IMG/VR virus record: IMGVR_UViG_2828164553_000001
Span: 57,173-121,172 of that record
DNA from: a virus
Lineage: Duplodnaviria; Caudoviricetes
Reading direction: 5' to 3' (one strand)
DNA length: 64,000 nucleotides
This document shows positions 3,501-58,866 of the stretch, in pieces (within the stretch, counting starts at the first letter, position 1; each line of letters begins with the position of its first letter). The notes beneath the pieces were generated by a model, which was given only the letters and a program-made list of their open reading frames with translations, searched no databases and was not told the DNA's origin. A program made the translations under genes and the position numbers.

Positions 3501-4138
3501 GAAAGCTGGTCACGCAATTCCGTTCGTTCATGGCCTACAGCTATGAGCGGCATCTGCTGAACTCCGCCTACCACTGGAAGGACTGGAACACCTACATGAT
3601 GGTCATGCTATCCAGCTCCATCGCAGCCCTGCAATGGGCCGCGCGCACGTCACTCAATACGGCGGACGATCCGGAGAAGCGCGAGAAGCAGCTTACGATG
3701 GGCAACTTCGTGGCCGCAGGAGTGTCTCAGTCCTCCTGGGGCGGCGTCATCCAGCCCATCGTGGACACTGCGCTGCCCCTCATGGGCCAAGACCCGGTGT
3801 TCGCCAACGCCCGCTCAACGGGCATGTCGACAAACATCGTGGGCGGTATCCCGGTAGTCGACTTCGCCAACCGCGTGATGGAAGCGTCCTCTATTCCGGC
3901 GCAAGCGCTCCGCGACGACCGTGAAGTGACCCGTAAGGAGCTGGAGAGCGCAGCCAAGCTGTTCTGGTTCCAGAACCTGACAGGATGGCAGAACATCCAG
4001 CGTATGGCGCTCAAGGAGGCGGAGAGTCGCGGCTTGATAAGCGACGGCTCCGGTGAAGCTGCCGCACGTCGCGAAGACCGAGACAACAAGGAAGACTCTT
4101 GGACCGCAAAATCTCTCTTTGGCCTGGACACTGAATGA
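515..4138 (+). CDS. Large internal virion (DNA ejection) protein, T7 gp16-like position
   Basis: 1207 aa, helical, just before the tail fibre; C-terminal 'KLVTQFRSFMAYSYERHL' resembles podophage internal virion proteins. Confidence 0.75.
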   Translation: MPTSIFDLTAPAKPRDLNEVVAESTRNNEGGHVARVMRRKEAEAADQKRKDETPFGELVGASQVQGGIGMIHRAYQEDSVLSRADPEWKLPEKFQAEMDQFGIGTDQWELFSRATSQEHYELLREFALQNEMAKETRASFGMLSNFASDMTDPVFFAADAATGGLARGARAGRLANSIRAGLAAGTTNAAMTLGNSRFNSEIGSADVAISAAAGFALGSALGARRGEHFAESVKVEDLARRDITGSSQSLGAARLNGLPDNPTPGISERSLSDAMQAQVDRGVDEVSIQPAFANIRLALSAQMGKLKDPTARGVGRWLFRDGVGYADRNLAVKQSAGEYASVNRATLETQLHRGFNAAWTAARAKHGLSRWDRGGELAWSRKVADVLRGVKADDETANQAAAAIRPVLDATYELGVRSGVLEPGSKNLDYFPQIQSKQAYQRIFGEMGLSEDQGVELYKQAIIADMRKNGDASKLEKFDEIAGDYVGTSDRALRAREKADDLGALTSDKQAAVRSAEEALKELEGMPGKQGDRRRNAAQRRLEDTRRKLQRHSERLDKAKAGLKDALEHEQKTLHARNEAKKLADDGGVDEELAELYARALIKRGSSLVTGDTGAPVRPLNTESLQELTDALRDAGASDAKITSVLGRYTAQMQEGAKAGAAKKRIRFDPNTEMTFTNRYGDDVTLKVTDFLDSDTTRVVSSHIREVVGWSAMAQKGNIRNKAELDALQQLLREQAIKAGDDPEKTLRMLDIGVKSIMGRSTEVNPNSTASRWSRALRDTQFLRVMNQVGFTLFTELGPTVAHAGLMNTARSIAFIGDFLRRGADGTLKSGEARYIEDLVATGTEHLRSPAFMRIEDDAFMPSVYGDSKFGRTMENATMLGQRFTSIASGMAPMNTALQRIAGRATLMKLLQLANDKRALSEGMTRRMRSYGLDQEAQDALFASLRGIKKVEDITEAGLSLADRERVAAFMFRVTRQQVIEGDASDSIMLMHSAGGKLVTQFRSFMAYSYERHLLNSAYHWKDWNTYMMVMLSSSIAALQWAARTSLNTADDPEKREKQLTMGNFVAAGVSQSSWGGVIQPIVDTALPLMGQDPVFANARSTGMSTNIVGGIPVVDFANRVMEASSIPAQALRDDREVTRKELESAAKLFWFQNLTGWQNIQRMALKEAESRGLISDGSGEAAARREDRDNKEDSWTAKSLFGLDTE

Positions 4139-6168
4139 TTGAACAAAACCGAGGCCTGTCCTTCGTGGCTTACACCTACGAAGGCGGGCCTCGGCGCTTC
4201 ACCTGCACGTTCCCGCGACTGAAGCAGGAACACGTGCGCGTGCTTGTGGGTGACCCAAAGTCACCCCGGACGGTACTCGGCAAGTGGATCAACGCCACGA
4301 CCGTCGAGATTCCCGACCAATCCGAATACCTCGCGACGCCTTACAGCGTCCTACTGCGCCGGGTTACGCCGTTCGCAGAACAGGCGATCCTCTTTCAGGA
4401 CGCCGCAACACTGCCGGCAGGCCAGCTCAACACCGCCATCCGGCAGCTTCTCTTCGTACAGCAGGAGGTTGCCGAGTTTGGCGTCGGCACCGGAAGCGTG
4501 CCAGGCAGTGGGCTGCCGGGGAACGGCGGGGGCAACCTGCCGGATATCCAGACCATCGTCGACCAGGTCGTGCAGTCGCCGGCCTACCAGATTCTCCAGC
4601 AACGCATCCCAGAGATTGACGCCAACGCCGAACTCATCATGCAGGAGCTTCTCCGCTCCAATGAGTTCTTCGACACGAAGCGCGACTACGGAGACCGCAT
4701 CTCCGAAGCGTCCACCCGCATCGCCCTCATTGAAGACGGCGACAAGGTGACTGCTGAGCAGATCACCACGCTATTGGCTAGGATGGTCAGGAATGAGACC
4801 GATGTAGCGGCCAGCTTCGATCAGATCAACCGGGCAATCGCCACGGAGACTGAAGCGCGTGTCGAATCGCTCACCGACATGCACGCGCAGATCGCCGCGG
4901 AGACCGGAACGCTTGTTGCTCAGGCGGTCGATAGTGTGGAGGTGGTAGTCAACAAGGTCGAGTCGAGAGTCACTACGGCCGAGGGCCGGCTGGCGGTCCA
5001 CGGCGAATCCATCGCGGCTACCAATGAATCATTGGAAGTCGTCGCCAATGATGCCCAGGCAAGCACCGAGTGGCGTCAGCTGTTTGCTGCGCAGTACGGC
5101 GCCCCGGGCGCTACCGGCGCATCGGTGGCCGCCGCCGTCAAGCAGCAGATCGACACCAAGGCGACACCAGCCGAAGCACGAAGCATCGCCAACACGTCAG
5201 TGACGGCGTTCGCAAACGGCACCTTCGCGGCCCTGCAGCAGTCCTATACGGCCTATGTGAGTGCGAACGACGCCAAGTGGTCCGGCACGTGGTCCCTTCG
5301 GATCAACGGAGGCGACCCTAACAACCCAGTCGTCGCAGGTATCGCACTCAGTGCGTACCCTGGCGGATCGGACTTCGTTGTCCAGTCGGATCGCTTCGCC
5401 ATCACGACCCCGACCGCGGGCTATAGCGCTCGCAAGTTCCCCTTCGTGGTCGGGACCGTGGGCGGCTTGAGCACGGTAGGAATCACCGGGCAACTGTTGG
5501 TGGATGGATCGATCACCGCGAACAAGCTGACCGTGAACTCGCTGGCCGCCATCACCGCCAACATGGGCACCGTCAACGGCGGCACGTTCAAGACACACAC
5601 GCTCGATGTCAACGGCAACATCGTCAACGCGCACGAGTTTCGCGTCGAACTGTCGAACGTTGGCACATGGCCCATCTGGGTCGGGGCCGGAGACAAGAAC
5701 GAGAACAATGCCGTCTTCTGGGTAGATCGCTCGGGCAACGCAGGCTTCAAAGGCCGAGTATCTGCGCCAAACATTGTCGGCAACTTCAATCGCCTGGCCC
5801 CTGTAGATTGGACCGGATCGGTGTCGATGAATAACACCACGGGAATCGTCAACTTCACGCTACCTGCGCCTGTGCTGCTGGGCGAATCACACACCCCGCT
5901 GATCGTACTCAGTGCAGGCGTGGACCATGCGTCTTCGGACAATGGGCGTGCCTTCATCTACATCCAGAAGCTAGTTGGTGCGGCCTGGGTGACAGTGGAT
6001 ACCTACTTCATCATTCAGGGCTCGGGCCACAAGTTCAACCATGCGCTCAATTACGTCGGAGACCCGACAACGGCGGAAGCCACCTACCGTGTGGCCATCG
6101 CCGATTCTTCGCGCGGTGACCGCTTGATCATCACCAAGGTCCGTGGATTCATCCAAGGACTCCGATAA
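4135..6168 (+). CDS. Tail fibre/adaptor: T7 gp17-like N-terminus, coiled coil, DUF1983/lambda-J-like segment
   Basis: N-term 'YTYEGGPRRFTCTFPRLKQEHVRVLVG' resembles the T7 fibre anchor; 'WSLRING..VVAGIAL..SDFVVQSDRFAI' resembles J-type tip proteins. Confidence 0.75.
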   Translation: MIEQNRGLSFVAYTYEGGPRRFTCTFPRLKQEHVRVLVGDPKSPRTVLGKWINATTVEIPDQSEYLATPYSVLLRRVTPFAEQAILFQDAATLPAGQLNTAIRQLLFVQQEVAEFGVGTGSVPGSGLPGNGGGNLPDIQTIVDQVVQSPAYQILQQRIPEIDANAELIMQELLRSNEFFDTKRDYGDRISEASTRIALIEDGDKVTAEQITTLLARMVRNETDVAASFDQINRAIATETEARVESLTDMHAQIAAETGTLVAQAVDSVEVVVNKVESRVTTAEGRLAVHGESIAATNESLEVVANDAQASTEWRQLFAAQYGAPGATGASVAAAVKQQIDTKATPAEARSIANTSVTAFANGTFAALQQSYTAYVSANDAKWSGTWSLRINGGDPNNPVVAGIALSAYPGGSDFVVQSDRFAITTPTAGYSARKFPFVVGTVGGLSTVGITGQLLVDGSITANKLTVNSLAAITANMGTVNGGTFKTHTLDVNGNIVNAHEFRVELSNVGTWPIWVGAGDKNENNAVFWVDRSGNAGFKGRVSAPNIVGNFNRLAPVDWTGSVSMNNTTGIVNFTLPAPVLLGESHTPLIVLSAGVDHASSDNGRAFIYIQKLVGAAWVTVDTYFIIQGSGHKFNHALNYVGDPTTAEATYRVAIADSSRGDRLIITKVRGFIQGLR

Positions 6169-6178
6169 CGAGGAACAA

Positions 6179-8203
6179 ATGGCAGAAACACCAGGCTACG
6201 TTTCCAATGCAAAGCTTGCAGAGCGCATCTCGGCATTGGTAGACCGCTGGAACACGCGCGAAAATCAGATGATCGCGCTTCTGGCTCAACCCGAAGGATA
6301 CGTAACGGTCACTGACGGCCTCGGCAAGGATCACGTCCTACCGTCCTTTCTGCAGCTCTCCAGGGATGTCTCGGAGCTTGTGGACGAACTTACGGGCGCC
6401 GTCAGCGGCGCTTCCGAGTTCGCCAATACGGCCCGACTGTACGCTGAGGGCGCGCAGGCGTCTGCCAACGATGCACAAACGAGCGCTGAAGACGCAGCCG
6501 TGCAACTCGCAGACGCGACCGGGCGGGCAGAAGCAGCGGCTGCAAGTGCGACCGCAAGCGCCGCAAGCGCCTCCGCCTCAGAGTCGAGCAACCAATCGGC
6601 CGGACTACACGACAGCGCTGCATCCGCCAGCGCAGCCGATGCTGATGCTGATGCGATCCAAGCATCGAACTCCAAGGCCCAGGCCGTGGCCTCCGCAAGC
6701 GCAGCAGCGTCAAGTGAAGTCCAGGCGGCTTCCTACGCCCACCAGGCGGAAGATTGGAGCGACCAGGCACAGTCGTGGGCAAACGCTCCGGCTGGTACTG
6801 AGATTGAGCCAGGAGCGTTTTCAGCTAAACACTGGTCCGAGCAAGCCAAGGCATCCCTCACTGGCACACTGGTCTACCGAGGCGGCTGGGACGCCGGCAC
6901 TGGCGCGTTCCCATCGAGCGGTAACACTGGCGCGTTCTACAAGGTCACCGGAGGCGGCGCGATTGGCGGACGTCAGTACAACCCCGGTGACCAGATCGTC
7001 CATAACGGCTCTGGCTGGGACCACATCGACAACACCGAACAGGTCACGTCGGTAGCCGGCAAGTCCGGGGCGGTCCAGCTGGTGCCCAGCGACATCTCCG
7101 GCCTGGGCACTCTAGCGACGCGCGACACCGTGGACTTCAGTAGCCATGTCATAAACAAGCCAGCTTCGTATCCTCCTAGCGGACATATGCACACGAAGGG
7201 CGATGTAGGGCTTTCAAACGTGGACAACACCTCCGACGCGAACAAGCCAGTCAGCACCGCTCAGCAGACTTCACTGGATTTCAAAGCACCAATCGACAAG
7301 CCAGTCTTCACCGGGGGCGTAACAGTTCGGAACAACTTCCTTCGAGTAAGCGGCTGGCAATCGGTTCCCAACGATGGCGTGGTCTATTTCGGAGCGAGTG
7401 ATAGCTGGCTCTTCAAGCAGGGAGATGCTTTCAGATTTCAGGTTGAAGGAAAGTTTAATGCAGTCCTGGATTCCTCTGGGACTGTCTGGACATCCGGAAA
7501 CTTTAATCCGGCCTCCAAGGCCGATGTTGGCGGACAGCCGCGCTTCGCTGGCGTTTTTGTTGGCGCCAACAACGATCAATACCTCTACACTGAAGATGCG
7601 AATCAAAGCGTGGTACTGCGCTTCGGCTATGGCACTTCTTTCAAGTACGCGAAGTGGAATGGCGTCACCGGCGCTTTCACCGCGCCCCACCTAATCGCGG
7701 GCGGAACCGGCAACGGAGCTTACGTACAGATTGGCGATGACGCGCGTTTGGTTGACATTGGCAGGAGCCACACCACTGCTATCCAAAGTACAGCGAATGG
7801 AAATATCGGATTTCTGCAGTTCGGATCGGGACCGACAATTGGCTGGGATGGCGCCACCCTGCAAGCGGCGGGACAAGAAATCAAGCATGCAGGCAATACC
7901 GGGTATTACGGTGTAAGTGGGCGGCAGCATAGCGACTGGAATACCTGCGTCACTCAGGGCATCTGGATGGCTGTAGGCGCCACCAACTCTCCTGACAATT
8001 CCGATTGGTGGCTAGGCCACGTAACCGTACACAACGGCGATTGGGTGCAGCAGGAGGTAATCAACTTCACCTCAAATCCGCCCAAGCAGTTCCGCCGCCA
8101 AAGGCAGGGCGGTAGCTGGGGCGCCTGGCAACAATGCGGCATGGTCATCGTATCGACCACAGACCCTGGCGGCGCCGATGGCGTCCTTTGGATTCAGCCG
8201 TAA
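6179..8203 (+). CDS. Tail fibre protein
   Basis: ATG 6179 after GAGGA; Ala/Ser-rich shaft, 'VGLSNVDNTSDANKPVSTAQQ' fibre repeat, pyocin-knob-like C-terminal region. Confidence 0.8.
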   Translation: MAETPGYVSNAKLAERISALVDRWNTRENQMIALLAQPEGYVTVTDGLGKDHVLPSFLQLSRDVSELVDELTGAVSGASEFANTARLYAEGAQASANDAQTSAEDAAVQLADATGRAEAAAASATASAASASASESSNQSAGLHDSAASASAADADADAIQASNSKAQAVASASAAASSEVQAASYAHQAEDWSDQAQSWANAPAGTEIEPGAFSAKHWSEQAKASLTGTLVYRGGWDAGTGAFPSSGNTGAFYKVTGGGAIGGRQYNPGDQIVHNGSGWDHIDNTEQVTSVAGKSGAVQLVPSDISGLGTLATRDTVDFSSHVINKPASYPPSGHMHTKGDVGLSNVDNTSDANKPVSTAQQTSLDFKAPIDKPVFTGGVTVRNNFLRVSGWQSVPNDGVVYFGASDSWLFKQGDAFRFQVEGKFNAVLDSSGTVWTSGNFNPASKADVGGQPRFAGVFVGANNDQYLYTEDANQSVVLRFGYGTSFKYAKWNGVTGAFTAPHLIAGGTGNGAYVQIGDDARLVDIGRSHTTAIQSTANGNIGFLQFGSGPTIGWDGATLQAAGQEIKHAGNTGYYGVSGRQHSDWNTCVTQGIWMAVGATNSPDNSDWWLGHVTVHNGDWVQQEVINFTSNPPKQFRRQRQGGSWGAWQQCGMVIVSTTDPGGADGVLWIQP

Positions 8204-8667
8204 TGAGTGGCTGGCTTATCAAATGGGGCGGTGCATATCGACAGCCGTGGATAGTGCGCCTCAAATGGGGCGGCGCGTGGATCAATCCAGCTGCCGTTCG
8301 CCTCAGATGGGGCGGCGGCTGGGTGACCGTCTACACCGCCTACACCCCACTCTCCAGCAATGCCACTGGAAGCTCCGCTCAGTACAACAACGGCAATAGC
8401 CGCACACCTATGACCCGGCAGCTAGGAGCGCGCGCGACTGTCTACACCGCAGGAGGGAACGGGAACCTCACGTACTCCTGGTTCGTGAGCAGCTCTAGCC
8501 AAGTGTCGAATGTATCGCTTGGCCCATCTGGGCCGTACTGCGATGTAAATGTCACCGCCACTCTAAACCAAAGCGGAAGCGTCACCGTGGGATGCACCGT
8601 CACTGACGGACAGAGCAGCACCACCGCCTACGCGACGACTCGCTATGACTACTACAACACCGTCTAA
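8203..8667 (+). CDS. Small tail fibre-associated protein (3x WGG repeats + beta-rich domain)
   Basis: TAATG overlap with the fibre gene; KWGGAY/KWGGAW/RWGGGW repeats. Confidence 0.6.
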   Translation: MSGWLIKWGGAYRQPWIVRLKWGGAWINPAAVRLRWGGGWVTVYTAYTPLSSNATGSSAQYNNGNSRTPMTRQLGARATVYTAGGNGNLTYSWFVSSSSQVSNVSLGPSGPYCDVNVTATLNQSGSVTVGCTVTDGQSSTTAYATTRYDYYNTV

Positions 8668-8947: not shown

Positions 8948-9189
8948 GCAAGGCAAGCAAGGATTCGATGGAACGCCTGCATGGCGCCATCGCAGACAAG
9001 CTGAGCGACACCATCGAGAACATGGAGGCAGGCGACAAGGGACTGGCCGCGTTACTGAACGTGGCCCGCCAATTCCTCAAGGACAATGGCATCGACTCCG
9101 TGGCAACTGAGACCAATCCGGTTGGCAAGGTAGCCGAGGCAGTCTCGAAGCATCCCTTCGATCCCTCCGAGAGCCTGAAGCACCACTGA
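8944..9189 (+). CDS. Terminase small subunit (T7 gp18-like)
   Basis: 'LNVARQFLKDNGI' motif; overlaps the start of the large terminase. Confidence 0.8.
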   Translation: MSKASKDSMERLHGAIADKLSDTIENMEAGDKGLAALLNVARQFLKDNGIDSVATETNPVGKVAEAVSKHPFDPSESLKHH

Positions 9190-10868
9190 TGGGGGCGTCG
9201 GGGATTACTTCCCTGCACGTCATCCACCCCTGGGAGGACTTCCGTAACTTCGCGTTCGACCTCTGGACGCATCTGGCCCTGCCGTCGCCAACGCCCGTGC
9301 AGTACGACATCTGTTCGTACCTCCAGCACGGGCCGCGGCGCCGCATGGTCCAGGCGTTCCGAGGCGTGGGCAAGTCATTCCTCACGGCTGGATACGTGTG
9401 CTGGCTTCTCTGGAAAGACCCGCAGCACAAGATCATGGTGGTCTCGGCGAGCAAGGAGCGCGCTGACGCGTTCTCGGTGTTCGTTAAACAGATCATCGAG
9501 ACCTTCGAGCCGCTGTCGCACCTGCGCCCCCGCAGCGACCAGCGCAACTCCAACCTGGCCTTCGACGTTGGCCCTGCCCTCCCCGACCAATCGCCTTCGG
9601 TGAAGTCGGTAGGCATCACAGGCCAGCTTACCGGCTCGCGCGCTAACACGATTATTCCCGATGACATCGAGGTCGTGAAGAACTCGCAGACCATCGTGCA
9701 GCGAGAGAAGCTCGCAGAACTCATCAAGGAGTTCGATGCGGTACTGAAGCCAGGTGGACAGGTGATCTACCTCGGCACGCCACAGACCGAAGAGTCGCTC
9801 TACAACAAGCTGCCGGAACGCGGGTACGACATCCGCATTTGGCCCGCACGCTTTCCGAAGGACATGAAGCAGCGCGTCGCATACGGCGCCATGCTCGCTC
9901 CAGTGATCGCGGCGGCGTTCGACGACAATCAGGCCCTCGCCTGGACGCCGACCGACTCCAGGCGCTTCGACGAGAAGGACCTGATGGAGCGCGAAGCGTC
10001 CTACGGACGTGCTGGTTTCGCTCTGCAGTTCATGCTGGACACCACGCTATCTGACGCTGAGAAGTATCCGCTCAAGCTGTCGGACTTCATCGTCATGGAC
10101 GTTGATCGCGAGGTCGCGCCGATCCGTGTCGTGTGGTCCTCCGGTAAACAGCAGGTGGTCGAGGAATTGCCCTCCGTGGGCTTTTCGGGCGACCGCTGGC
10201 ACCAGCCGATGTACGTGGCTCCCGAGATGGAAGAGTTCACCGGATCGCTGATGACCGTCGATCCGTCCGGACGGGGCGGCGACGAGACGGGCTTCTGCGT
10301 CACCAAAGTTCTGCGCGGCATGATTTACCTGCGCCGCTCGGGCGGCTTCAAGGGCGGCTACGAGGACTCCACGCTGGAGGGCTTAGCGCACATTGCGCGC
10401 GCAGAGAAGGTCCAGCTAATCCTTGTCGAATCAAACTTCGGCGACGGCATGTTCAACAAGCTGTTCGAGCCGGTTCTGAAGCGGATCTACCCGTGCTCCG
10501 TCGAGGAAATCAAACACTCAACGCAGAAGGAGCGCCGAATCTGCGACACCATCGAGCCGGTTTTGAACCAGCATCGCCTGGTCGTGGACAAGGCCGTAAT
10601 CCGCGCCGACGCGGACACCGAAAACCACCACTACCAACTGTTCCACCAACTCTCCCGAATGACCCGCGACCGCGGCGCCGTCAAGCACGACGACCGCGTG
10701 GAACCGCTCGCAATGGCACTCGCGTACTGGGCCGACCAGCTTGCACGCAATGTTGAAGACGAAGAGTCGCGGCGCATGGAGGAACTGCAAGAACAGGACT
10801 ACCTCGACTTCATCCAATCGGTCACTGGCCGTGCGGTGGACGAGGCGAACTTCTACGACAACTACTAA
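9189..10868 (+). CDS. Terminase large subunit (T7 gp19-like)
   Basis: 'QAFRGVGKS' Walker A, 'GITGQLTGSRA', 'YLGTPQTEESLY', 'VDPSGRGGDET', 'HDDR' motifs. Confidence 0.95.
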   Translation: MGASGITSLHVIHPWEDFRNFAFDLWTHLALPSPTPVQYDICSYLQHGPRRRMVQAFRGVGKSFLTAGYVCWLLWKDPQHKIMVVSASKERADAFSVFVKQIIETFEPLSHLRPRSDQRNSNLAFDVGPALPDQSPSVKSVGITGQLTGSRANTIIPDDIEVVKNSQTIVQREKLAELIKEFDAVLKPGGQVIYLGTPQTEESLYNKLPERGYDIRIWPARFPKDMKQRVAYGAMLAPVIAAAFDDNQALAWTPTDSRRFDEKDLMEREASYGRAGFALQFMLDTTLSDAEKYPLKLSDFIVMDVDREVAPIRVVWSSGKQQVVEELPSVGFSGDRWHQPMYVAPEMEEFTGSLMTVDPSGRGGDETGFCVTKVLRGMIYLRRSGGFKGGYEDSTLEGLAHIARAEKVQLILVESNFGDGMFNKLFEPVLKRIYPCSVEEIKHSTQKERRICDTIEPVLNQHRLVVDKAVIRADADTENHHYQLFHQLSRMTRDRGAVKHDDRVEPLAMALAYWADQLARNVEDEESRRMEELQEQDYLDFIQSVTGRAVDEANFYDNY

Positions 10869-10881
10869 CCAAGGAACCACC

Positions 10882-11037
10882 ATGACCGAGTTTTTAATCA
10901 CTGCCGCCGTCTTCCTGGCGTTCGGCCTGTTTATCCGTAACCGCATCCGCAAGGCCAAGGCAGCGTCCGCATCTTCGGCCGGCGCACCTGTCGGCGGCGG
11001 CTCCACTGGCACCAAGCCGCACACGCAGGTTCGTTGA
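10882..11037 (+). CDS. Small membrane protein
   Basis: AAGGA RBS; N-terminal TM helix followed by basic residues. Confidence 0.55.
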   Translation: MTEFLITAAVFLAFGLFIRNRIRKAKAASASSAGAPVGGGSTGTKPHTQVR

Positions 11038-11483
11038 GCGAATCCATCCGCATCGCAACCCCGCTCACCAAGGTGAGCGAGGGTTTGCGCCTTCGGGCAT
11101 ATGTGTGCCCGGCCGGCAAGCTAACTATCGGATGGGGCCACACCGGCACCGACGTGAAGCCAAGTATGACGATCACCCCGGAGCGCGCTGAGCAGCTCCT
11201 GGAGGCCGACTTAAAGCGCGCCCTGGCAGGCGTAAGGGAGCACGTGCGCGTGCCTCTCAAAGCGCACCAGGAGGCCGCTCTCGTGGATTTCGTATTCAAT
11301 CTGGGCGCAGAGCGGCTACGCACATCTACCCTGCTGCGTCTGCTGAACTCTGGAAACTACACGGCAGTGTCCGCACAGCTGACCCGCTGGGTGTATGGCA
11401 CGGTCAACGGAAAGAGCCGCAAGCTGCCCGGGCTGATCACCCGACGCGCCGCGAACGTGGCGATGTGGGAAACCAATTCTTGA
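11034..11483 (+). CDS. Lysozyme (GH24 endolysin)
   Basis: 'EGLRLRAYVCPAGKLTIGWGHTG', 'ALVDFVFNLG', 'LPGLITRR'. Confidence 0.92.
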   Translation: MSESIRIATPLTKVSEGLRLRAYVCPAGKLTIGWGHTGTDVKPSMTITPERAEQLLEADLKRALAGVREHVRVPLKAHQEAALVDFVFNLGAERLRTSTLLRLLNSGNYTAVSAQLTRWVYGTVNGKSRKLPGLITRRAANVAMWETNS

Positions 11484-12396: not shown

Positions 12397-12459
12397 CTAC
12401 GCACGTAGCGCCCCTCGGCTTTGACGCCCGCTATGGGGCACCTGGACGCCTTCCTGCGC

Positions 12460-12663
12460 CTATTCGATACCGCGCAGGGCCTTGGCTTCAGCTAGGTAGG
12501 CGTCTTTTTCCGGCGATGGCGGCTGTTTGCGTACCAAGTTGATGGTCGCGGCAGATGCTGAAATGGCGTCAGTGGTCGAGGTTGGGCGCAGGGACTGCAA
12601 AAGACCCTTAAGTACGTCACGCTGAGCATTGAGGCGGGCTTCCAGTTCGGTGATCGTGGGCAT
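12460..12663 (-). CDS. Hypothetical protein
   Basis: 67-aa ORF with AAGGA RBS. Confidence 0.5.
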   Translation of the reverse strand: MPTITELEARLNAQRDVLKGLLQSLRPTSTTDAISASAATINLVRKQPPSPEKDAYLAEAKALRGIE

Positions 12664-13132
12664 CGGGTCGTCCTTAGGGTCGAAATGTTTGGCGGAGATT
12701 TCCTTGAGGGTATCTGACTCCGAAACGTCGCGCGAATCCCCCCTCCAGGGGGTCGCAGTGTGCCGCGATTCTTCTCTTCGACGGCCTGCTGCGGCTCTGC
12801 CGTCCCTCTCTGCGTCACCTGTCGCCCTAAGCCGTTGAATTGAAGCGCCCCGCGCTGGATTCCCTATCCAGACGCCACCCAGACCTCAGGCGATAGCGCA
12901 CGCCTGGTGCGCTCCAGCCGTCCGCGTGTGTTCGCGTCTGTCTTTCCCTATCTGTCGTTTTGCTTCTGACCATAGGCGGACACCTGCCGAGCACTTACGG
13001 CCCTGCCCTGCCCATGCATAGCCCTTGGCGCATATCCCAGCAGCCAGCGCGCTAGATGCCCACCCATCTAACACCGACCGGCCGCGGTCAGCGCTCTACC
13101 TATTCGTGCGTTCTCTCACATATTTCGTTATA

Positions 13133-13176
13133 TCCCGAGATTGGGACTTGACCCGATCATGGAATTGATCTAGCTT
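13133..13176 (+). promoter_or_regulatory. Early promoter 1 with operators
   Basis: TTGACC(13148)-17bp-TAGCTT(13171); operator TCCCGAGATTGGGA at 13133-13146. Confidence 0.7.
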
Positions 13177-13182
13177 ATATCC

Positions 13183-13400
13183 CATCGGCCAGCCACACCG
13201 GCCGGCGCGATCCCTGAGCCGCCCAGCGCGGCGCTAAGAGAAGCAATCGGATTCAACCGGCCCCAGCCCGTGCAATGCGCTACTGGGGCGGCCTTCAAGG
13301 GCCTGCGACTACGCCGAGAGGCAACCGCAGGGGAACCGAAAGAGGCCAAGGCGGCTAGAGGCCGCACGGTTCCGGGGTGCTCTCAGGCATAGCCGCAACA
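13183..13400 (+). ncRNA. Putative structured non-coding RNA/leader A
   Basis: No credible ORF; closing stem CCTGAG(13213)/CTCAGG(13382) encloses several hairpins. Confidence 0.5.
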
Positions 13401-13450
13401 TCCCAACATTGGGAAATAACTTGACAACGGGACGATTCCAGATTTAGGAT
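13401..13450 (+). promoter_or_regulatory. Early promoter 2 with triple operator
   Basis: TTGACA(13421)-18bp-TAGGAT(13445); TCCCAACATTGGGA at 13401-13414, degenerate copies at 13419 and 13436. Confidence 0.75.
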
Positions 13451-13454
13451 ATGT

Positions 13455-13750
13455 CCCACGGTCGCTGAGGCGGCCAGCTGGCAAAGCGGGAAGCTCTCCC
13501 GTCGCATTCCGACCCTTGCACGGGGTCGTAAATAACACGGTGCGGCTGGACCAGCTAAGGCGCGATGAGGCGTCGTTGCGGGAAGTCCGGGACGGGAATG
13601 GCTATGCCTTCGCCCACCCACATGACGACCCCTCAACGACAGCGGAGCGGCACTGGCCCGAAACCGGCACGGCCTGACAATCCTGCACACCGCAGGAGAG
13701 TCGGGCCACTCAAGCGCCTCAGCAACACGGGGGTGTTTGAGTGGCTTGAT
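13455..13750 (+). ncRNA. Putative structured non-coding RNA/leader B
   Basis: GCTGAGGCG(13464)/CGCCTCAGC(13715) closing stem, three internal domains, alternative 16-bp hairpin at 13705-13745. Confidence 0.55.
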
Positions 13751-13765
13751 TCACTGGAGAACCCG

Positions 13766-13918
13766 ATGGAACACGATGCGATCCCCTACGTTGCACCCGA
13801 CGACCGCTTGATGGACACCGTGAGGTGGGAGCTGGCGTGCTACCGGACGAGTATCGGCCGTACTGAAGCTTTGTCCATTGCATCCCACATCTGGCACAAA
13901 TCCCACGAAGGAGCGTGA
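13766..13918 (+). CDS. Early hypothetical protein
   Basis: GGAGA RBS, ATG 13766. Confidence 0.5.
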   Translation: MEHDAIPYVAPDDRLMDTVRWELACYRTSIGRTEALSIASHIWHKSHEGA

Positions 13919-13919
13919 C

Positions 13920-14117
13920 ATGACTAGGCATAAGGAAGCGCACCACAGAAGAGTTCAAGCCGGCATGGGGAGGCCGGCAAGAAGAGCGCAGTACACCTGC
14001 CTGCGCGTCGTTGGCCGTTGGGTGCTGCGGCACCACGGCCTTGCGGTTGGCATCTATCCAACTCTGGGCGCACTTGTGGCGGCCCGGATCGAACACGAGG
14101 GACGCACTCATGGCTGA
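13920..14117 (+). CDS. Early hypothetical protein
   Basis: AAGGAG RBS; tightly packed with neighbours. Confidence 0.5.
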   Translation: MTRHKEAHHRRVQAGMGRPARRAQYTCLRVVGRWVLRHHGLAVGIYPTLGALVAARIEHEGRTHG

Positions 14118-14346
14118 GCACGACGGGATCACTGAGGGGCTGGAGTGCGACAACGCCGCAGTCATGGCCGGCTTCACTCGCGAAATATTCGCCAGGACAA
14201 CGACGCTCGATCTGCACCTATTGATCCGCCCCGACACTGATTTAGACGGACACTTCCGCGCCTGGTGCACTGACGAGCAGGAGTGGCTGCGGATCGGGGG
14301 GTGGAACTTCTGCATTCAGGACGTAAACTCTGGAGCGTCCGCATGA
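14110..14346 (+). CDS. Early hypothetical protein (acidic)
   Basis: GAGGG RBS; overlapping start/stop junctions. Confidence 0.55.
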   Translation: MAEHDGITEGLECDNAAVMAGFTREIFARTTTLDLHLLIRPDTDLDGHFRAWCTDEQEWLRIGGWNFCIQDVNSGASA

Positions 14347-14504: not shown

Positions 14505-14651
14505 ATGCCTGAAGTACCAGCGGGAGCGCTGCCCTAGCGCTACACCGGATGGGCTGCCTACGGCCCGGTGGCTGGTGAGTAAATCCTAGCAACCAGGTAA
14601 GCACCCGCACATCACTGGACGACGCGCCGCGCTGTCCGAAAATTCCCACAA

Positions 14652-14675
14652 GCCGCCTCCGGGCGGTTTTTTGTT
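14652..14675 (+). terminator. Rho-independent terminator
   Basis: GCCGCC-TCCG-GGCGGT followed by TTTTTGTT. Confidence 0.8.
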
Positions 14676-14692
14676 GCCCGGAGAACGGCTGC

Positions 14693-16114: not shown

Positions 16115-16645
16115 CTATTTCCGAAATTTCTGAAAACGAAGATAGCGCCCGAAGGCTGATTCGACTCGCCCACGCACATCGCCAATTTTTTTCTCTACTG
16201 CCCGCAGGGTTGCCATGTCATTCAGCGTGACCGCATCTGAGAGGTCGAAAGGCGACTTGCGCTCAAGACCTGTCGCCTCTCTCCGGATCAACTCCATATC
16301 GCTCCTGATTGCATACATGAGGCTTGTCACCTCCCTGCCGAAGAGGAAGGACGCTTCAAGGAGGCAATCGTCAAATTCTGCAAGAACGTCCGCCGGGATG
16401 TCCTCGTACGGCTTGTGGAAACAATTGCTCTTTTGTCGGTACGCCGGCCCGCGCCGCCATCGGACCTCTGCCAGTACGCAATCTAGCAACCTTATTGTGG
16501 CCTTGTAGACCCTCAACCTTCGGTCATACGAATCAAGCCGAAGTTTGATGGTTCCAGTTCGCCACTGAGCAACTGCGACCGCCACGCCCAATGCCGCGAC
16601 GGCAGGGCCGAGAGTGGCTTTCATGAATTCAATTACATCAACCAT
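16115..16645 (-). CDS. Membrane-anchored hypothetical protein (moron)
   Basis: N-terminal TM then 'QWRT..KLRLDSYDRRLRVY'; antisense to the early operon. Confidence 0.6.
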   Translation of the reverse strand: MVDVIEFMKATLGPAVAALGVAVAVAQWRTGTIKLRLDSYDRRLRVYKATIRLLDCVLAEVRWRRGPAYRQKSNCFHKPYEDIPADVLAEFDDCLLEASFLFGREVTSLMYAIRSDMELIRREATGLERKSPFDLSDAVTLNDMATLRAVEKKIGDVRGRVESAFGRYLRFQKFRK

Positions 16646-16717
16646 CGAGTCCCCAGTGATCAACATTCGGGGCTATTGGAGCACAGCTATGCAGTTTAAA
16701 AAGCTAGGAGCGCGGCG

Positions 16718-16984
16718 TTGAACAGCTTCTTCGATCCACGCGCCGACACTGCAGTCCACGCACCAGACGGCAAGGTATTTGCCTATGGTCCCCGCATCAC
16801 CCGCGGGGGCACCTTCGGCAAACCTGAGTACGCCGAGCCTCCCAACCCCGGCGAGACGCCCGACCACTGGGAGGTCCGCTGGGTGGACTACTACGACAAC
16901 GCGGGCCACTTCATAGACGGCTGGATCGCGGACTGCGCGGTCGAAGCGCACGCGAAGTTGCTGGCCAAGGCACTAAGTCAGTGA
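16718..16984 (+). CDS. Early hypothetical protein
   Basis: AGGAG RBS before TTG start. Confidence 0.55.
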   Translation: MNSFFDPRADTAVHAPDGKVFAYGPRITRGGTFGKPEYAEPPNPGETPDHWEVRWVDYYDNAGHFIDGWIADCAVEAHAKLLAKALSQ

Positions 16985-17157
16985 AGGCGGTCGCAGACTT
17001 TAGACAGCATGCTGCCTCAATTAAAGCTAAGGCCTTGGGCCATTCTTTCAATTAGTAAAAGGCCGCCGACATAGCGTCGGCGACCAATGTTAAAACAGCT
17101 TTACTCAAAAGCTCCGAGATACTTCGCTTCTCAGCATAATTTCAAAAAAATTCAAAC

Positions 17158-17409
17158 CTACTTACTAGCCCGAGTTGGCGCGATGAAGTTAAAAAACCAT
17201 CTCCAAGCTGACGTCACAGTCAACAAGCACACTAGGCCCGAGAGAGCAGCCAAGATTACCATCCAGGGCTTCAGTGCTACAGGGAACGGCGGGTTCGAAA
17301 ATGCGGCAGGCGCAACAAATCCAGACCAAACGCACACGATAAACGAAACCATGAATATTGCGGCAGTCCTCCCGCGAGGATAGCTTAATCCCAACATGTA
17401 GCACCTCAT
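17158..17409 (-). CDS. Small two-TM membrane protein
   Basis: Two hydrophobic segments; directly downstream of the secreted protein gene. Confidence 0.45.
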   Translation of the reverse strand: MRCYMLGLSYPRGRTAAIFMVSFIVCVWSGFVAPAAFSNPPFPVALKPWMVILAALSGLVCLLTVTSAWRWFFNFIAPTRASK

Positions 17410-17431
17410 GGATGAAATTTGACTTTTAAAG

Positions 17432-18322
17432 TTAGTCGTACTTGTAATTACAGGTAGTCTCAGGCTGCCCGTTTACGGTCCCTGTGACACAGATAACTCC
17501 ATTGACTTTCCTCACGGGCGCCCCTTTCTCCATATTAACACCGATGATGAAAAGCTGATTCACAAACGCTGCCACATCCGTCTGACTCGACCCTGCGAAG
17601 TTGTAAACGGTCGTAACCCCAGGATTCTTGGGCAATTGATCTTTGTTTTGCGGTATTACATTGTTCGCGTTGTCTCGATATGATCCAGGCACCGGCTTAA
17701 ACGTCTGAAAATCGCGATCCCAGAAATATCGAGCCACTCCACCATCTGCATAACGCACGATGATTGGGATTTTGATATCACGCGCTAAAACTGGATTTAC
17801 ACCATTAACGATCATTTGAAGCATCCCGTAGAAGGGATGGCCGAGGAGCCAATTACTAACCGCCACTTGCCTACCAGGATTATACATGTCGTCATAAGGG
17901 GTTGTCGGAAATCCCGGCTGAGCAATGATTTCAGGCTCTGCGGATGCTGTTCGCATAGCAGCCATGTAATTACTCATCCCGGACTCTACCGGCAGAACCG
18001 TGGGTACGATTACTGGGAGACAACCAGGGCGTGGCTGAGAACTGGGAGGACAAGGCACATCGCCTTCCCAGGTTCTTTGCATTCTCCACTTAAGAGTTCG
18101 GTCGTTACTGGCGTTTACGACATATATCTCTGTGGTGGAGGGCAAAGGTTGCGTTTGGGCGTACTGCCGCGCAGCTATCTGCATAGCTCCAGGCGCGCAA
18201 CCTTCGCAGGAAATGGCTACTTCCTTGACCTGTGCTGAAACATCACCGGTATATAAAAAAGAGCATACCGCGATTACCGGCAGTAATAGGGTGACTAGCT
18301 TTCCTGTGACCTTGTCGTGCAT
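17432..18322 (-). CDS. Secreted Cys-containing hypothetical protein (moron)
   Basis: Sec signal peptide (…VSA-Q), three Cys pairs, AT-richer than flanks, GGAG RBS. Confidence 0.7.
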   Translation of the reverse strand: MHDKVTGKLVTLLLPVIAVCSFLYTGDVSAQVKEVAISCEGCAPGAMQIAARQYAQTQPLPSTTEIYVVNASNDRTLKWRMQRTWEGDVPCPPSSQPRPGCLPVIVPTVLPVESGMSNYMAAMRTASAEPEIIAQPGFPTTPYDDMYNPGRQVAVSNWLLGHPFYGMLQMIVNGVNPVLARDIKIPIIVRYADGGVARYFWDRDFQTFKPVPGSYRDNANNVIPQNKDQLPKNPGVTTVYNFAGSSQTDVAAFVNQLFIIGVNMEKGAPVRKVNGVICVTGTVNGQPETTCNYKYD

Positions 18323-18483
18323 TTCTCGCTCCATGATTTTAGGTTTTGTGCAGGCCCCCTGTTGCCCACGTCCGTTTATAGCACGTGAAGAAGCTGCGTC
18401 TACTTTCTTGACGCGATTCGCAGAAGGCGCGGCCTGCAAACGAATGGTCTTGCCGCATCTATGTCCTTCAATCGTTTCGAAAA

Positions 18484-18786
18484 ATGGCAATACCACGCCT
18501 TTGGGAGGCTAATCTTGTGAACCACGTTGTGAAAATGAACGTCGACGATCTTTTCGACTACATGTCGCAAAGGTCTGCGAAAGCGGGCAAGCGCGCTTTG
18601 GAGCGGGACAAGATCACAGCAGATGTTTCTTCGCGTCCTGCTGCGGAGACGTCAAAGATTGACCTGATCCTCGACTCCAGGGGACGCCCCCTGGTCTCCA
18701 TCTGTGAGATGACCGGGCGCTTTAATAGCCGCCTGCGAGACACAACGCATGACACCTACGACGACGACGAGGGGGCCGATCAATGA
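18484..18786 (+). CDS. Hypothetical protein (true start probably downstream)
   Basis: ORF with ATGA overlap to the next gene. Confidence 0.45.
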   Translation: MAIPRLWEANLVNHVVKMNVDDLFDYMSQRSAKAGKRALERDKITADVSSRPAAETSKIDLILDSRGRPLVSICEMTGRFNSRLRDTTHDTYDDDEGADQ

Positions 18787-19887: not shown

Positions 19888-21150
19888 ATGCCGTTACGAC
19901 TTAAGGGCACAGCCCCCCGACCCGGGGAGGCTGACCGTCGCTATTACATGATCGACGTGCAGGTGGAAAAGCGCCGGGAGCGACTATCCGCCGGAACTCG
20001 CGACAAGAACCTCGCGCTCCGTAAGGAGCAGAACATCATCGACGCGCTACGTGACGATCCTGAAGTCACTACGCTGGAACTCAAACGCATCCTCCGGGGC
20101 GAGCGTCTTGCCGCCATCCAGGATCGCCGCAGCGAAGATCGGGCCTGGACGCTGAAAGAAGCGTGCGACAAGTGCCTCAAGGACCGCGAGGACGGTGGCT
20201 GGGGTGCGGCGTCCTCCAACGACACCTACGCAACTAACTGCCGCATGATCCAGAAATTCCTGGGAGCGGACACGCCGGTTGCCTTCATCGATCAAGAAAA
20301 GATTCGCGACCTTGCAGACCATCTCCTCGACGAAGAGGAGAACGCGCCTGCCACGGTAAACCGCAAGCTCTTCGCGCTGATGCACGTCTTGGCTTACGCC
20401 AAGCAGCACAAGCAGTACCCGAAGGAGCTCCCCAAGTGGAAACCGCACAAGGAAGGCGACAACGCTCGCCAGTTCGTGCTGACCGCGGAAGACGAGCGGG
20501 TGATATTCGATGCAATCGCCAAGCTCGACGACCGACCGGACAACCCGCTCGGCGGCAACCAGGTCTCGCGCGACGCTGCGGACTTCGTTGACTGCTTTAC
20601 CTTCTTGGCGGACGTTGGCTGCCGCTTCTCTCAGGCGCTGAAAGTGCGCTGGCGGGACATCGACTGGGACCTTATGCCGGGCGTCGTAGGCATCAAGTTC
20701 TGGCGCAAGGGAGAGCAGAAAGGAGGGAGGGTTCGCACTATTCCCTGCACATCCCGCGTGGTCGATGTACTCAAGCGGCGACGGGCGCTGGGAGGAGATG
20801 GCCCATTCTCGGGACTGCGCAGGCAGCGAGGCACCGAGCTATGGAACATGGCAAAAGCAAGGACCAACCTGGCTAGGGAAGAAGAGTGCGTTCCCCACTG
20901 CTTGCGGCACACGTGCGCAACCCGCTTGCTTGCTCGTACGGGCGACCTGAAGTTGGTTCAAGAATGGCTCGGACACACCAAGATTGAGACCACGGCGGCC
21001 ATCTACGCGAAGGTGTTGGTGGACACAAAAGTGCGAGCGCTGAGTGCACTGCAAGACGGGTGGAATGGCGCGTCACCTATCCCAGATGTGGGAACAATCC
21101 AGGACTGCAACCTATCCCAACATCGGGACGACCCGACAGTAACCCAGTGA
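19888..21150 (+). CDS. int: Tyrosine integrase of prophage 1
   Basis: 'GCRFSQ', 'KGGRVRTIP', 'HCLRHT', 'WLGH', 'IYAK' catalytic motifs. Confidence 0.95.
   Translation: MPLRLKGTAPRPGEADRRYYMIDVQVEKRRERLSAGTRDKNLALRKEQNIIDALRDDPEVTTLELKRILRGERLAAIQDRRSEDRAWTLKEACDKCLKDREDGGWGAASSNDTYATNCRMIQKFLGADTPVAFIDQEKIRDLADHLLDEEENAPATVNRKLFALMHVLAYAKQHKQYPKELPKWKPHKEGDNARQFVLTAEDERVIFDAIAKLDDRPDNPLGGNQVSRDAADFVDCFTFLADVGCRFSQALKVRWRDIDWDLMPGVVGIKFWRKGEQKGGRVRTIPCTSRVVDVLKRRRALGGDGPFSGLRRQRGTELWNMAKARTNLAREEECVPHCLRHTCATRLLARTGDLKLVQEWLGHTKIETTAAIYAKVLVDTKVRALSALQDGWNGASPIPDVGTIQDCNLSQHRDDPTVTQ
21080..21128. promoter_or_regulatory. Operator pair at integrase 3' end / att arm
   Basis: TCCCAGATGTGGGA (21080) and TCCCAACATCGGGA (21115), the same motif as at the early promoters. 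Confidence 0.65.
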
Positions 21151-21186: not shown

Positions 21187-21264
21187 TGGGGTGGCTGAGG
21201 GGACTCGAACCCCCGACATCTGGAATCACAATCCAGTACTCTAACCAGCTGAGCTACAGCCACC
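21187..21264 (-). tRNA. tRNA-His (GTG), intact; its 3' part is the probable att core of prophage 1
   Basis: GGTGGCTGTAGCTCAGCTGGTTAGAGTACTGGATTGTGATTCCAG...GGTTCGAGTCCCCTCAGCCACCCCA; G-1 and CCA present. Confidence 0.97.
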
Positions 21265-56900: not shown

Positions 56901-58866
56901 ATGTCCCGGAATGCAGACCTCGAGCTCGACGAGCTCACCGCAGCAACCTCGCTAAGCGGCCCCGCCACTCGCCGCTGCCTCAGCGCCTGTGCTGCCGCAG
57001 ACCACGCCCACGCTAGTGCGCTCAAGCGCCGCGGCATGTCAAAGGGTCCCAAACGCTACCCGAAGCGCAGCGATCGCATAGAACTGACGGGCCTGCGAGC
57101 CGAAGCAGCCAGCCGCGACTTCGTCCGGGAGCTGCGCGCATGAGCGCTGTTGCAGCTTCGTTGACCGCAGAAGATCTGACGGCCGCAATCATCTGGGCCG
57201 AGGACGCTATCCGCGAGGACGCGCACACCCTCAAAACGCTAGGCGACTACGCCTCGGCGAGCTATGCAACGTGCCTGCAAAAGAGGATCGCCAAGCGTAG
57301 GGAGCAGTTGGAGCGCTTCCGCTCTGCACTCGCAGAGGTTGGTGCCGCATGAACGAGTTTCCCTCTGCCGGCTTCCGGCCGGGCCGTGGTCAAGGCACCT
57401 TGCTGCGGCTGTGCGTCGAACGCGATTCGGTGAGCGCTGCGCTGTATGGCACAGACCGCGGCAGAGAGCTTGCGGTGACCGTCTGCCGCCTCACTGACGT
57501 GCGCCGCATAGCCGGCGCGCTGCAACTTGGCCAGACCGCGTACACAGCGGGCGATGACGCGCTGCAGGCCATGTGCGAGTGGATGGCGGCGCACGGCGTG
57601 CCGGTACGGGTGACGCCATGAGCGACCGTCCATTGGAAGCCTTCTTCCCCACCGGACATGCCAGCCAAACACTTGCGCTGATGATCTGCAGCGACTGGAT
57701 CTGGGCTGGCCTGTACGACGGCAAGGTCACGCCATCCCTGGATGGCTGCGCAGTTGCGCCGCGCCTACGCGCACGCGCCACAGCCCGCCATCTGTGCATC
57801 GGCCGTGACTCCTTCGCACTGGCACCACGCGTTCTGCTGCGTGCCACGCGCTGGTTACGCATGCACGGCGTGCGGGTCCAGGAGCAGCGCGCATGAGCCG
57901 CCTCTATCAGCGTGCCCTCGCCCTTGGCTGGACATTGGTGGCTATCGCCGCCGCCGTCTGTGTGCCGATACGCCTGGCCGAAATCCACGCCGCGCAAGAC
58001 AACGTAGTTGCCCAGCCGGCAGTGGCCACAGCGCAAAAGGCGCCCCTCTCCCACGTACGGCTGGCGCGAGCAGAGGACTGACATGCGCCAGGAAGCCACG
58101 CCCTTGCCGCCTACCGTCCCGATATGCCAGCCGGGCCATCGCCCGCAGCTGGTCACCACGCACGGCGCGCCGCATCGCTATCGCATTGGCGGCCCCGCAC
58201 CGACCACGTTCCACATCGAGTGCTGCCGCTGCGGCAAGGCCACCGCGCCCAGCCCCAGCCGCGCACTCACCGAAAGCCGCTGGACCGAACCCACCGGCCA
58301 GCACCGCATCCCGCTGTCCCACCTAAGCCGAGCACGCGAGCAGCTATTCGCCGTGCTGGCGCTTGCGGCCCACGCCGCCTGACCGAGGTCATCATGCATC
58401 TACAACCCAAAGCACAGGCCGCGCTCAAGGCGGCCTACGGCGCCCAAGGCCGCACCCTGCGCCGCACACGCGGAGGCTTCGCAGCCATGCCCGCACAAGT
58501 ACAAACCAGCGGCCCGGTGCAGATCCAAGCCTTCACCCGCCGCTGCATCAACTGGCTCGACGAAGCCGGCCTGGTGCAATTCGACGACCCGCAATTCCCG
58601 AACGTCATCACCCTCAACCCGCGCGGCATCGCCTACGCCGAACAGCTGCTGCGCGACGAACCCGCTGCGCGCGGCAAGGCAGGTGCCCAATGAGCGCCTT
58701 TGCCCTGTCCACCGTCCGCCACAAAGACCGCGAACGTGCCGAGCTGGCAAACGACCTCAAGGCGTTCGCCAAGCGCGGCGGCAAGGTGCACAAGTTGGGT
58801 GCTACGCCGGTGCGTAAGAGCTTGTCGCGGCGTGAGGCAAACGATGCGCGAGTGATCAAGGTCTAG
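56901..58866 (+). CDS. Operon of eight small early hypothetical genes (56901-57143, 57140-57352, 57349-57621, 57618-57896, 57893-58081, 58083-58382, 58394-58693, 58690-58866)
   Basis: Chain of ATGA overlaps downstream of the OL operators. Confidence 0.6.

Follow-up and report, generated by a model that had tools for sequence, protein, structure and literature searches.

Leader B, an untranslated RNA of approximately 308 nucleotides (nt), lies ahead of the first early gene of a T7-like prophage in a stretch of 64,000 nt from the IMG/VR virus record IMGVR_UViG_2828164553_000001 (positions 57,173 to 121,172 of that record). This whole stretch is called here the window, and coordinates refer to it unless a homologue is named. 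Leader B is a real, conserved, folded and non-coding RNA leader with two competing folds. It belongs to a known kind of element, the structured phage early leader with alternative folds, and it has two features not described for T7, namely a conserved core of approximately 200 nt and a four-segment refolding module (Z-X-Y-X') with coupled covariation. The helices Z:X, X:Y and Y:X' of this module are conserved in the attenuator-type arrangement of 1:2 + 3:4 vs. 2:3, and all of them show compensatory changes.

A first-pass annotation, made from the letters of the window, had described a structured non-coding leader just 3' of an operator-flanked promoter and just 5' of the first early gene, and this is what we found. 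It had also proposed mutually exclusive folds, in a switch that would gate entry into the early operon. Such folds do exist, as conserved alternative pairings, but not between the strands that were drawn, since it is the Z-X-Y-X' module that shows the 1:2 + 3:4 vs. 2:3 logic.

A conserved and non-coding RNA

Homologues were sought by a terminase-anchored scan of viral contigs, by pattern scans of viral and metagenome contigs and by a terminase scan of bacterial genomes. They form about five lineages of one phage clade, in which all the named hosts are Stenotrophomonas. A close group (L034, L003 = L002, L001, L008, L006 and L004) is 90-98% identical to the window, and the L007 (= L120) lineage is 76% identical to it. 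L021 is a separate lineage. The Stenotrophomonas maltophilia/S. sepilia prophage type (hereafter, the Stenotrophomonas type) includes L012, L017, L090, L118, L124, L125, L127 and others, and the L010 lineage was recognised by structure alone.

Leader B (13457-13765, + strand) was identified as an untranslated RNA by its folding, its conservation, its G.U pairs and the indels that break the open reading frames (ORFs) overlapping it. The region folded at -142.6 kcal/mol (z = -3.5), and none of 100 dinucleotide shuffles did as well. The core (13505-13680) shares 88-92% identity with that of L007; for the flanks, the peripheral helices and the neighbouring genes this figure is 23-73%.

Protein coding within leader B was ruled out by frame-breaking changes: L004, L007 and four close relatives carry 1-nt indels that disrupt ORF 13565-13918 (+) as well as ORF 13355-13690 (-). 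Translation of the former through the leader, which the first-pass annotation had set beforehand as evidence against its own proposal, is contradicted by such an indel, which in L034, L008, L006 and L004 leaves only 29 open codons of the frame ahead of the ATG. In addition, no small ORF was conserved across the homologues, and there is no leader peptide.

Many conserved G.U pairs were found (in P1, in P4 and at five positions of the long hairpin) and therefore the folded molecule is the + strand RNA. A minus-strand RNA and a DNA cruciform were both ruled out, because these pairs would become A-C mismatches in them. It must also be considered whether the conserved stretch could be a signal at the DNA level (packaging, replication or a repressor site) or a small coding gene on either strand. 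A conserved 45-nt element (approximately 12923-12972) lies within about 800 bp, and the minus strand folds well too (z = -2.9). Nevertheless, we consider this very improbable, given the A-C mismatches, the breaking of both overlapping ORFs and the fact that compensatory changes preserve pairing and not sequence. The possibility that GAGTC/GATTC were GANTC methylation or restriction sites was dropped, as GANTC occurs 78 times in the prophage and 76 were expected.

The fold was decided by comparison of 10 sequences (alignment A2), with shuffles and slid helices as controls. A pair-by-pair check found every complementary segment named in the first-pass annotation: the outer helix 13464-13472/13715-13723, with nine perfect pairs; AGCTGG (13476-13481)/CCAGCT (13551-13556); TGAGG + CGTCGT (13566-13576) and its partner TGACG.CCTCA (13622-13635); TGGCCCGA (13654-13661)/TCGGGCCA (13701-13708); and a 16-bp hairpin (13705-13720/13730-13745) followed by TTGATT, GGAG at 13756 and ATG at 13766. 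As a fold, the enclosing helix and its three domains had 84.3% of their cells paired and did no better than chance, with a covariation of 0.046, lower than the shuffled mean (0.061) and no better than that of the slid controls; these counts reject the three-domain drawing. The bases of the outer helix belong instead to the local hairpin P1, whose compensatory changes disrupt that helix, and the switch proposed between this helix and the 16-bp hairpin fails on covariation. The 16-bp hairpin itself and the two small hairpins of the first domain (13486-13502 and 13510-13528) were supported.

An alternative fold, consisting of P1, P2, S1, P4, D2, a hairpin at 13658-13667, an inner hairpin at 13681-13697, X:Y and a terminal hairpin, had 95.5% of cells paired and 20 pairs changed on both sides, with none of 500 shuffles as good and a covariation of 0.162 vs. 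0.089. The elements of leader B, all on the + strand, are:

13460-13475: P1 hairpin, GGTCGC-TGAG-GCGGCC (13460-13465/13470-13475); 96.6% of cells paired, two compensatory pairs
13486-13502: P2 hairpin, GCGGGA-AGCTC-TCCCGT; 90% paired, one compensatory pair and wobble changes
13510-13545: S1 hairpin (13510-13515/13523-13528), whose loop TTGCAC (13516-13521) can pair with GTGCGG (13540-13545)
13560-13573: P4, a 4-bp hairpin with the conserved loop GATGAR, preceded by the invariant TAAGG
13574-13638: D2, a long irregular hairpin with near-invariant internal loops (GGGAAGTCCGGGA ... CCCACATGACGACCCC), the most conserved part
13653-13668: Z (13653-13658) and the small hairpin CCG-AAAC-CGG; Z pairs with X when X is free of Y
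13671-13678: X, GGCCTGAC; pairs with Y or Z
13681-13697: inner hairpin TCCTGC-ACACC-GCAGGA, enclosed by X:Y; five of six pairs with compensatory changes
13698-13707: Y, GAGTCGGGCC; the shared strand, with X or X' as partner
13708-13742: upper stem (13 bp) and loop of the terminal hairpin, present in both states; 100% and 97.5% paired, six compensatory pairs
13743-13752: X', GGCTTGATTC; Y:X' extends the hairpin to 23 bp (13698-13752)

The P1 stem is changed to GGTCAC/GTGACC in L034 and to GGCTGC/GCAGCC in L002, and it is likewise compensated in L127. The bases of S1 and of TTGCAC/GTGCGG are invariant in nine close sequences, so they show no covariation. The latter pairing is a candidate H-type pseudoknot of reasonable geometry, and one of the same topology (CGCGG/CCGCG) can be drawn in L021 and the Stenotrophomonas type, where the alignment is out of register. 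The P4 stem is GCGC/GCGT in the window vs. GGCC/GGCC in L021 and the Stenotrophomonas type. D2 is 89.6% identical to that of L007 and 67.5% to that of L021; its outer stem covaries, and its apical stem is extended by compensating bases in L021. In the Stenotrophomonas type, a different hairpin domain occupies the position of D2 and the 3' module is retained. A likeness of GGAAAGUCCGGG in D2 to the RNase P CR-I motif, or of parts of D2 to the signal recognition particle RNA, was discarded: it had no Rfam support and the pairing partners differ.

Coupled alternative pairings and predicted refolding

The three strands of the 3' module that compete around Y differ among the lineages as follows:

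Window and close group: X GGCCUGAC; Y GAGUCGGGCC; X' GGCUUGAUUC
L007: X GGUCAGAC; Y GAGUCUGGCC; X' GGCUUGAUUC
L021: X GGUCAGAC; Y GAGUCUGACC; X' GGUCAGAUUU
Stenotrophomonas type: X GGUCAGAU; Y GAGUCUGACC; X' GGUCCGAUUC
L010: X GAUAGAUC; Y GAGUCUAUCC; X' GGAUUGAUUC

Across these five lineages, positions Y6 to Y8 change together with both of their partners, X and X'. The X:Y helix (13671-13678/13700-13707) had 98.4% of cells paired and four compensatory pairs; it is perfect in the four alignable lineages, and in L010, judged by eye, seven of the eight positions pair. The long hairpin, with 19 aligned pairs, was 96.1% paired. Within it, Y:X' shows compensatory changes at Y7 and Y8, and a G.U pair or a mismatch stands at Y6:X'5 in four of the five lineages. 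The inner hairpin enclosed by X:Y is retained with unrelated sequence in L021, the Stenotrophomonas type and L010.

The third pairing, Z:X, is formed in the window by CUGGCC (C-G, a U/U mismatch, G-C, G-C, C-G and C-G) and in L007 by CUGAUC (C-G, U-A, G-C, A-U, U.G and C-G), with two positions compensated with respect to the window. In L021 and the Stenotrophomonas type, the place of Z is taken by a neighbouring CUGGC, with an equivalent CUGGC/GUCAG pairing.

Folding of successive prefixes of the leader predicted the same course in all five lineages: X:Y (8 bp) is the minimum-energy pairing from the appearance of Y until X' is complete, and then the fold flips, Y pairing with X' and X pairing again upstream. 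In four of the five lineages X:Y is only transient in these folds. Under constrained folding, the state with Z:X and the long hairpin has an energy equal to or lower than that of the X:Y state in the five lineages that can be compared in this way; the L010 energies fall outside this comparison of forced folds, and L010 was judged by eye.

The completed hairpin (13698-13752) stops 3 nt before the GGAG of the ribosome-binding site (RBS), which stays outside it. A role of the 3' hairpin as a mask of the RBS was thus ruled out, its last base (13752) lying ahead of GGAG (13756-13759). Its role as an intrinsic terminator was also ruled out: it has no U-tract, its tail being UUGAUUCA, and the terminator scan called none at 13698-13760.

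A comparable logic is found in the hok/sok mRNAs, for which a metastable folding pathway was reportedly deduced from coupled covariations by Gultyaev, Franch and Gerdes in 1997. As in leader B, one strand has two exclusive partners, all three covary, and an early pairing is displaced once a downstream segment has been transcribed or processed. The likeness is one of logic only, as sequence, context and output are unrelated and leader B has neither a toxin gene nor an antisense RNA.

Possible roles of leader B

Leader B stands between a promoter and the first early gene, and the signals around it are:

13132-13146: second copy of the palindrome, before the upstream promoter; the palindrome is given as ATCCCRNNATTGGGA for both promoter-like sites
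13400-13414: operator-like palindrome ATCCCAACATTGGGA, just 5' of the -35 box; of a direct repeat family and kept in the close group (alignment A1)
13421-13450, + strand: promoter PB, of sigma-70 type (TTGACA, 18-nt spacer, TAGGAT), with 10 of 12 matches in the promoter scan
13756-13759 and 13766-13768, + strand: RBS GGAG and ATG of the first early gene, read from the sequence

Two sigma-70-type promoters stand in tandem at the left end of the prophage. PB is the second of them, and its position is retained in L007, L021 and the Stenotrophomonas type. The transcription of leader B probably starts at approximately 13457-13458.

We tentatively favour the reading that the hairpin is a processing and translation-setting element of the T7 R0.3 kind, by which the leader body is released. 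The host RNA polymerase would make leader B as the cis-encoded 5' leader of the PB early transcript of a temperate T7-like phage, and this leader would comprise the two 5' hairpins, the conserved core (S1 with or without the pseudoknot, P4 and D2) and the four-segment 3' module. During transcription X would pair with Y and, once X' is made, Y would swap partner, in the order suggested by the thermodynamic prefix folds. The end state would be Z:X plus the 23-bp hairpin, with a weak spot in its lower stem, 3 nt before the RBS. In T7 terms, this hairpin would correspond to R0.3, the RNase III site of the early leader. A double-strand-specific cut in it would presumably free the mRNA of the first gene with a short unstructured 5' end (GAUUCACUGGAG...), and would also separate off the conserved leader body as an RNA of its own, with P1 capping its 5' end. 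The cleavage by RNase III, as well as any effect on translation or stability, is predicted by analogy with T7, whose host-polymerase transcript is cut co-transcriptionally by RNase III, the cutting being of importance for the translation of several mRNAs (PMC4858673).

With respect to location, the host-polymerase early transcript carries the leader B hairpin after its promoters and ahead of the first gene. In the predicted fold of the T7 A3 leader, a hairpin has the lower 3' strand GAUAUUC-ACU, and this strand begins approximately 34 nt before the ATG of gene 0.3; its equivalent in leader B is GAUUC-ACU, with the weak spot just 5' of it. We take the T7 hairpin to be R0.3, with its cut position as reported by Dunn and Studier. 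This parallel of strand and weak spot is why an R0.3-like role is favoured. The parallel extends to the setting, as both phages are of the T7 type and have tandem host-polymerase promoters near the left end, followed by untranslated leaders of hundreds of nt with a hairpin before the first early gene (strand ...AUUC-ACU). The T7 promoters A1, A2 and A3, at 498, 626 and 750, and gene 0.3, at 925, give a layout like that of PB and leader B. Moreover, the T7 early region has small genes and the anti-restriction protein Ocr, and that of the window prophage has small genes and ArdA. There are also differences. No sequence homology to T7 was found in the search of the phage collection, and the hairpin of leader B is longer and nearly perfect over 23 bp, with a single wobble or mismatch spot. 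In addition, it is coupled to X:Y and Z:X, and it is preceded by the conserved core of about 200 nt, which is absent in T7.

Several points weigh against an R0.3-like role. T7 sites, of about two helical turns, have shorter stems and a true, asymmetric internal loop at the cut site, unlike the conserved 23-bp hairpin with its G.U or single mismatch at Y6:X'5 in four of the five lineages. In T7 such a hairpin precedes most of the early genes, while a search of the 21 kb of prophage gave no second intergenic hairpin like that of leader B. The two states of the window are nearly equal in energy (-56.0 vs. -55.2 kcal/mol in constrained folds), the minimum-energy fold of its full-length leader is back at X:Y, and the prefix folds are thermodynamic minimum-energy snapshots and not a kinetic simulation. 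Finally, cutting by RNase III accounts neither for a core better conserved than the surrounding genes nor for the keeping of X:Y and Z:X. For these last two reasons, three other readings have to be weighed.

The first is a sensing switch, in which the core (S1 with the possible pseudoknot, P4, D2 and P5) would bind a small molecule or, more plausibly, a protein. A phage or host factor holding Z or X would then determine whether Y picks X, leaving X' free, or X', forming the long hairpin, and this choice of partner would set the translation of the first early genes. The arrangement of 1:2 + 3:4 vs. 2:3 is the classical logic of attenuators, with all the pairings under selection; the core resembles a binding site in that near-invariant loops and bulges lie between covarying stems; and the closeness in energy of the two states of the window is what switches require. 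Leader attenuators and riboswitch platforms likewise place a four-segment alternative between a folded domain and the first gene. Unlike them, leader B has a 3:4 helix that includes neither a U-tract nor the RBS, and so works neither as terminator nor as mask (13752 vs. 13756), and it has no leader peptide and no known ligand or binding protein. Furthermore, D2 is swapped for a different hairpin domain in the Stenotrophomonas type with the 3' module kept, and there was no match to an Rfam riboswitch even at E ≤ 10. Leader B is confined to one gene context and one narrow phage clade, which gives no basis for naming a ligand, and the riboswitch suggested by the first-pass annotation is unsupported. 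We therefore regard the sensing switch as unlikely, and we would say the same of a new class of sensing RNA in temperate T7-like phages, whose core would bind a factor and whose Z-X-Y-X' relay would set the expression or the processing of the early operon.

The second is that leader B is a passive structured spacer or stabiliser, whose folding is kept against Rho loading and RNase attack. The alternative pairings would then be a folding pathway that keeps Y from mispairing before X' is made, with no regulatory output; in a variant, the released leader would work in trans as a decoy or small RNA. This is consistent with the high predicted structure, with a hairpin 2-3 nt from the probable RNA start, with the transience of X:Y in four of the five lineages and with the Dyella leaders, which are similar in length and layout and unrelated in sequence. 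We find it rather unlikely, because it leaves unexplained both the invariant D2 loops and a core sequence identity of about 90%, which is above that of the neighbouring DNA (65-73%).

The third is antitermination of the HK022 put kind, in which the core, working in cis, would let the host polymerase that transcribes it pass the terminators of the early operon; such readthrough would also be needed for drawing a T7-like genome into the cell. The intrinsic terminators concerned, all on the coding strand, are:

14650-14679: window
8733, 8965 and 9619: L012
17004: L021
13532: Dyella prophage L091

They are strong and conserved in sequence, with near-identical stems (AGCCGCC....GGCGGCT) and tails TTTTTGTTGCCC, and are kept even in the Dyella prophages. 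The host polymerase must either stop at them or be made resistant. In the excised genome, the integrase and the attachment site have to be passed before the T7-type RNA polymerase gene is reached, and the host polymerase may need to transcribe far to get there. The HK022 put RNAs, of approximately 70 nt and with two stems, are also folded RNAs right after early promoters, in two units and with intrinsic terminators downstream; leader B follows its promoter directly, as one of two promoter-leader units. The resemblance is positional only, as size and fold differ, and put-like function has no known sequence or structure signature for comparison. The Z-X-Y-X' module would play no part in it, in the Dyella-type relatives the terminator goes with a different leader B, and the terminators may simply leak. 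We consider this reading quite doubtful.

Distribution, genome setting and significance

In every lineage, pattern scans and a covariance-model search located leader B in a single gene context. Two viral pattern scans and one metagenome scan returned the known lineages and six chance matches, nothing further, and a covariance model of the 3' module found no new members in 95 related loci (1.03 Mb). With Rfam 15, the whole window gave only tRNA-His at the gathering score, and the region 12800-14200 at E ≤ 10 gave only two chance-level matches (MIR918, E = 1; GadY, E = 3.2). The blastn search of 12400-13920 against 50,697 phage records had no match, and no description of leader B was found in the literature searched. 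Dyella prophages have the same two-promoter layout and a similar leader length, with an unrelated leader B sequence.

The provirus record is 121 kb long, and the integrated T7-like phage, of which the right-hand part occupies the first 21 kb of the window, ends at tRNA-His (21187-21263, - strand), its integration site. The T7-type RNA polymerase gene is approximately 20 kb upstream of the window start. Genes recognised by protein matches are:

515-4138: T7-type internal virion protein
4135-6168: T7 tail-fibre N-domain
9189-10868: T7-type large terminase
11034-11483: phage lysozyme
14794-15504, + strand: ArdA homologue
19888-21150: tyrosine integrase

The ArdA homologue has an inserted cysteine-rich stretch (residues approximately 76-116) with weak matches to Anti-TRAP and to the DnaJ motif CXXCXGXG. 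Between the early genes and the integrase, 16115-18496 (- strand) is a cassette of genes of lower G+C content (48-58%), antisense to the early operon, with the appearance of acquired prophage cargo.

The first early gene (13766-13918) encodes a protein of 50 amino acids that is conserved in the close group and has no Pfam or PHROG family. The second (13920-14117, + strand; 65 amino acids) had no family match either; its arginine-rich start, MTRHKEAHHRRVQAGMGRPARRAQ, has some likeness to the arginine-rich motif with which lambdoid N proteins bind RNA. A region of approximately 1.3 kb without convincing genes separates the lysis genes from the first small early gene, and it comprises, in this order, the 45-nt element, two promoter-like sites preceded by palindromes and two long leaders. 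The 45-nt element (approximately 12923-12972; ..TGTCTTTCCCTATCTGTCGTTTTGC..) is kept in all lineages, including those in which the leaders differ (L010, L012-14, L017 and L021), and is found in distant relatives too; it probably marks a phage genome end or the boundary of a terminal repeat.

The upstream leader, leader A (13183-13398), includes a hairpin (13260-13289) whose 16-nt loop, CCCGTGCRATGCGCTA, is kept in L007 and whose stem covaries, from CCCCAG/CTGGGG to CCTAGA/TCTAGG in L007. Nine bases of this loop are complementary to leader B TTGCACGGG (13516-13524), as CCCGTGCAA/TTGCACGGG, and this is kept in L007. Loop-loop pairing between both leaders was nonetheless dropped as a candidate, because 9-nt runs are within the shuffle range and there is no L021 counterpart. 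In L012, of the Stenotrophomonas type, the start of leader A, CCGTCGCCAGC (8027-8037), is perfectly complementary over 11 nt to leader B GCTGGCGACGG (8434-8444), in the Z-loop-X region; this exceeds the longest run (10) in 60 shuffles, and it might give transcripts from the upstream promoter another fold. A motif GGGACTAGCC-N4-6-GGCCCC was found in leader A of L021 (14940-14975), L012 (8117-8145) and L091 (11893-11920), and is absent from that of the window. Since the L021, Stenotrophomonas and Dyella types share this motif, leader A appears to be a separate and more widespread RNA family.

Temperate T7-like phages have, to our knowledge, been little studied, and we know of no account of how the first seconds of their early transcription are controlled. 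Leader B is present in several Stenotrophomonas prophages and in related uncultured phage contigs, and absent from Rfam and from the phage collection searched. It is a natural example of three- to four-way covariation pointing to a programmed refolding pathway. If RNase III cuts it, the T7 R0.3 paradigm would extend to distant relatives, with a refolding step in addition. A factor-sensing or polymerase-modifying role would instead make it a new class of regulatory RNA, and in the case of sensing it would provide a checkpoint of lysis-lysogeny or entry at the RNA level, above the repressor and within seconds after DNA entry or induction.

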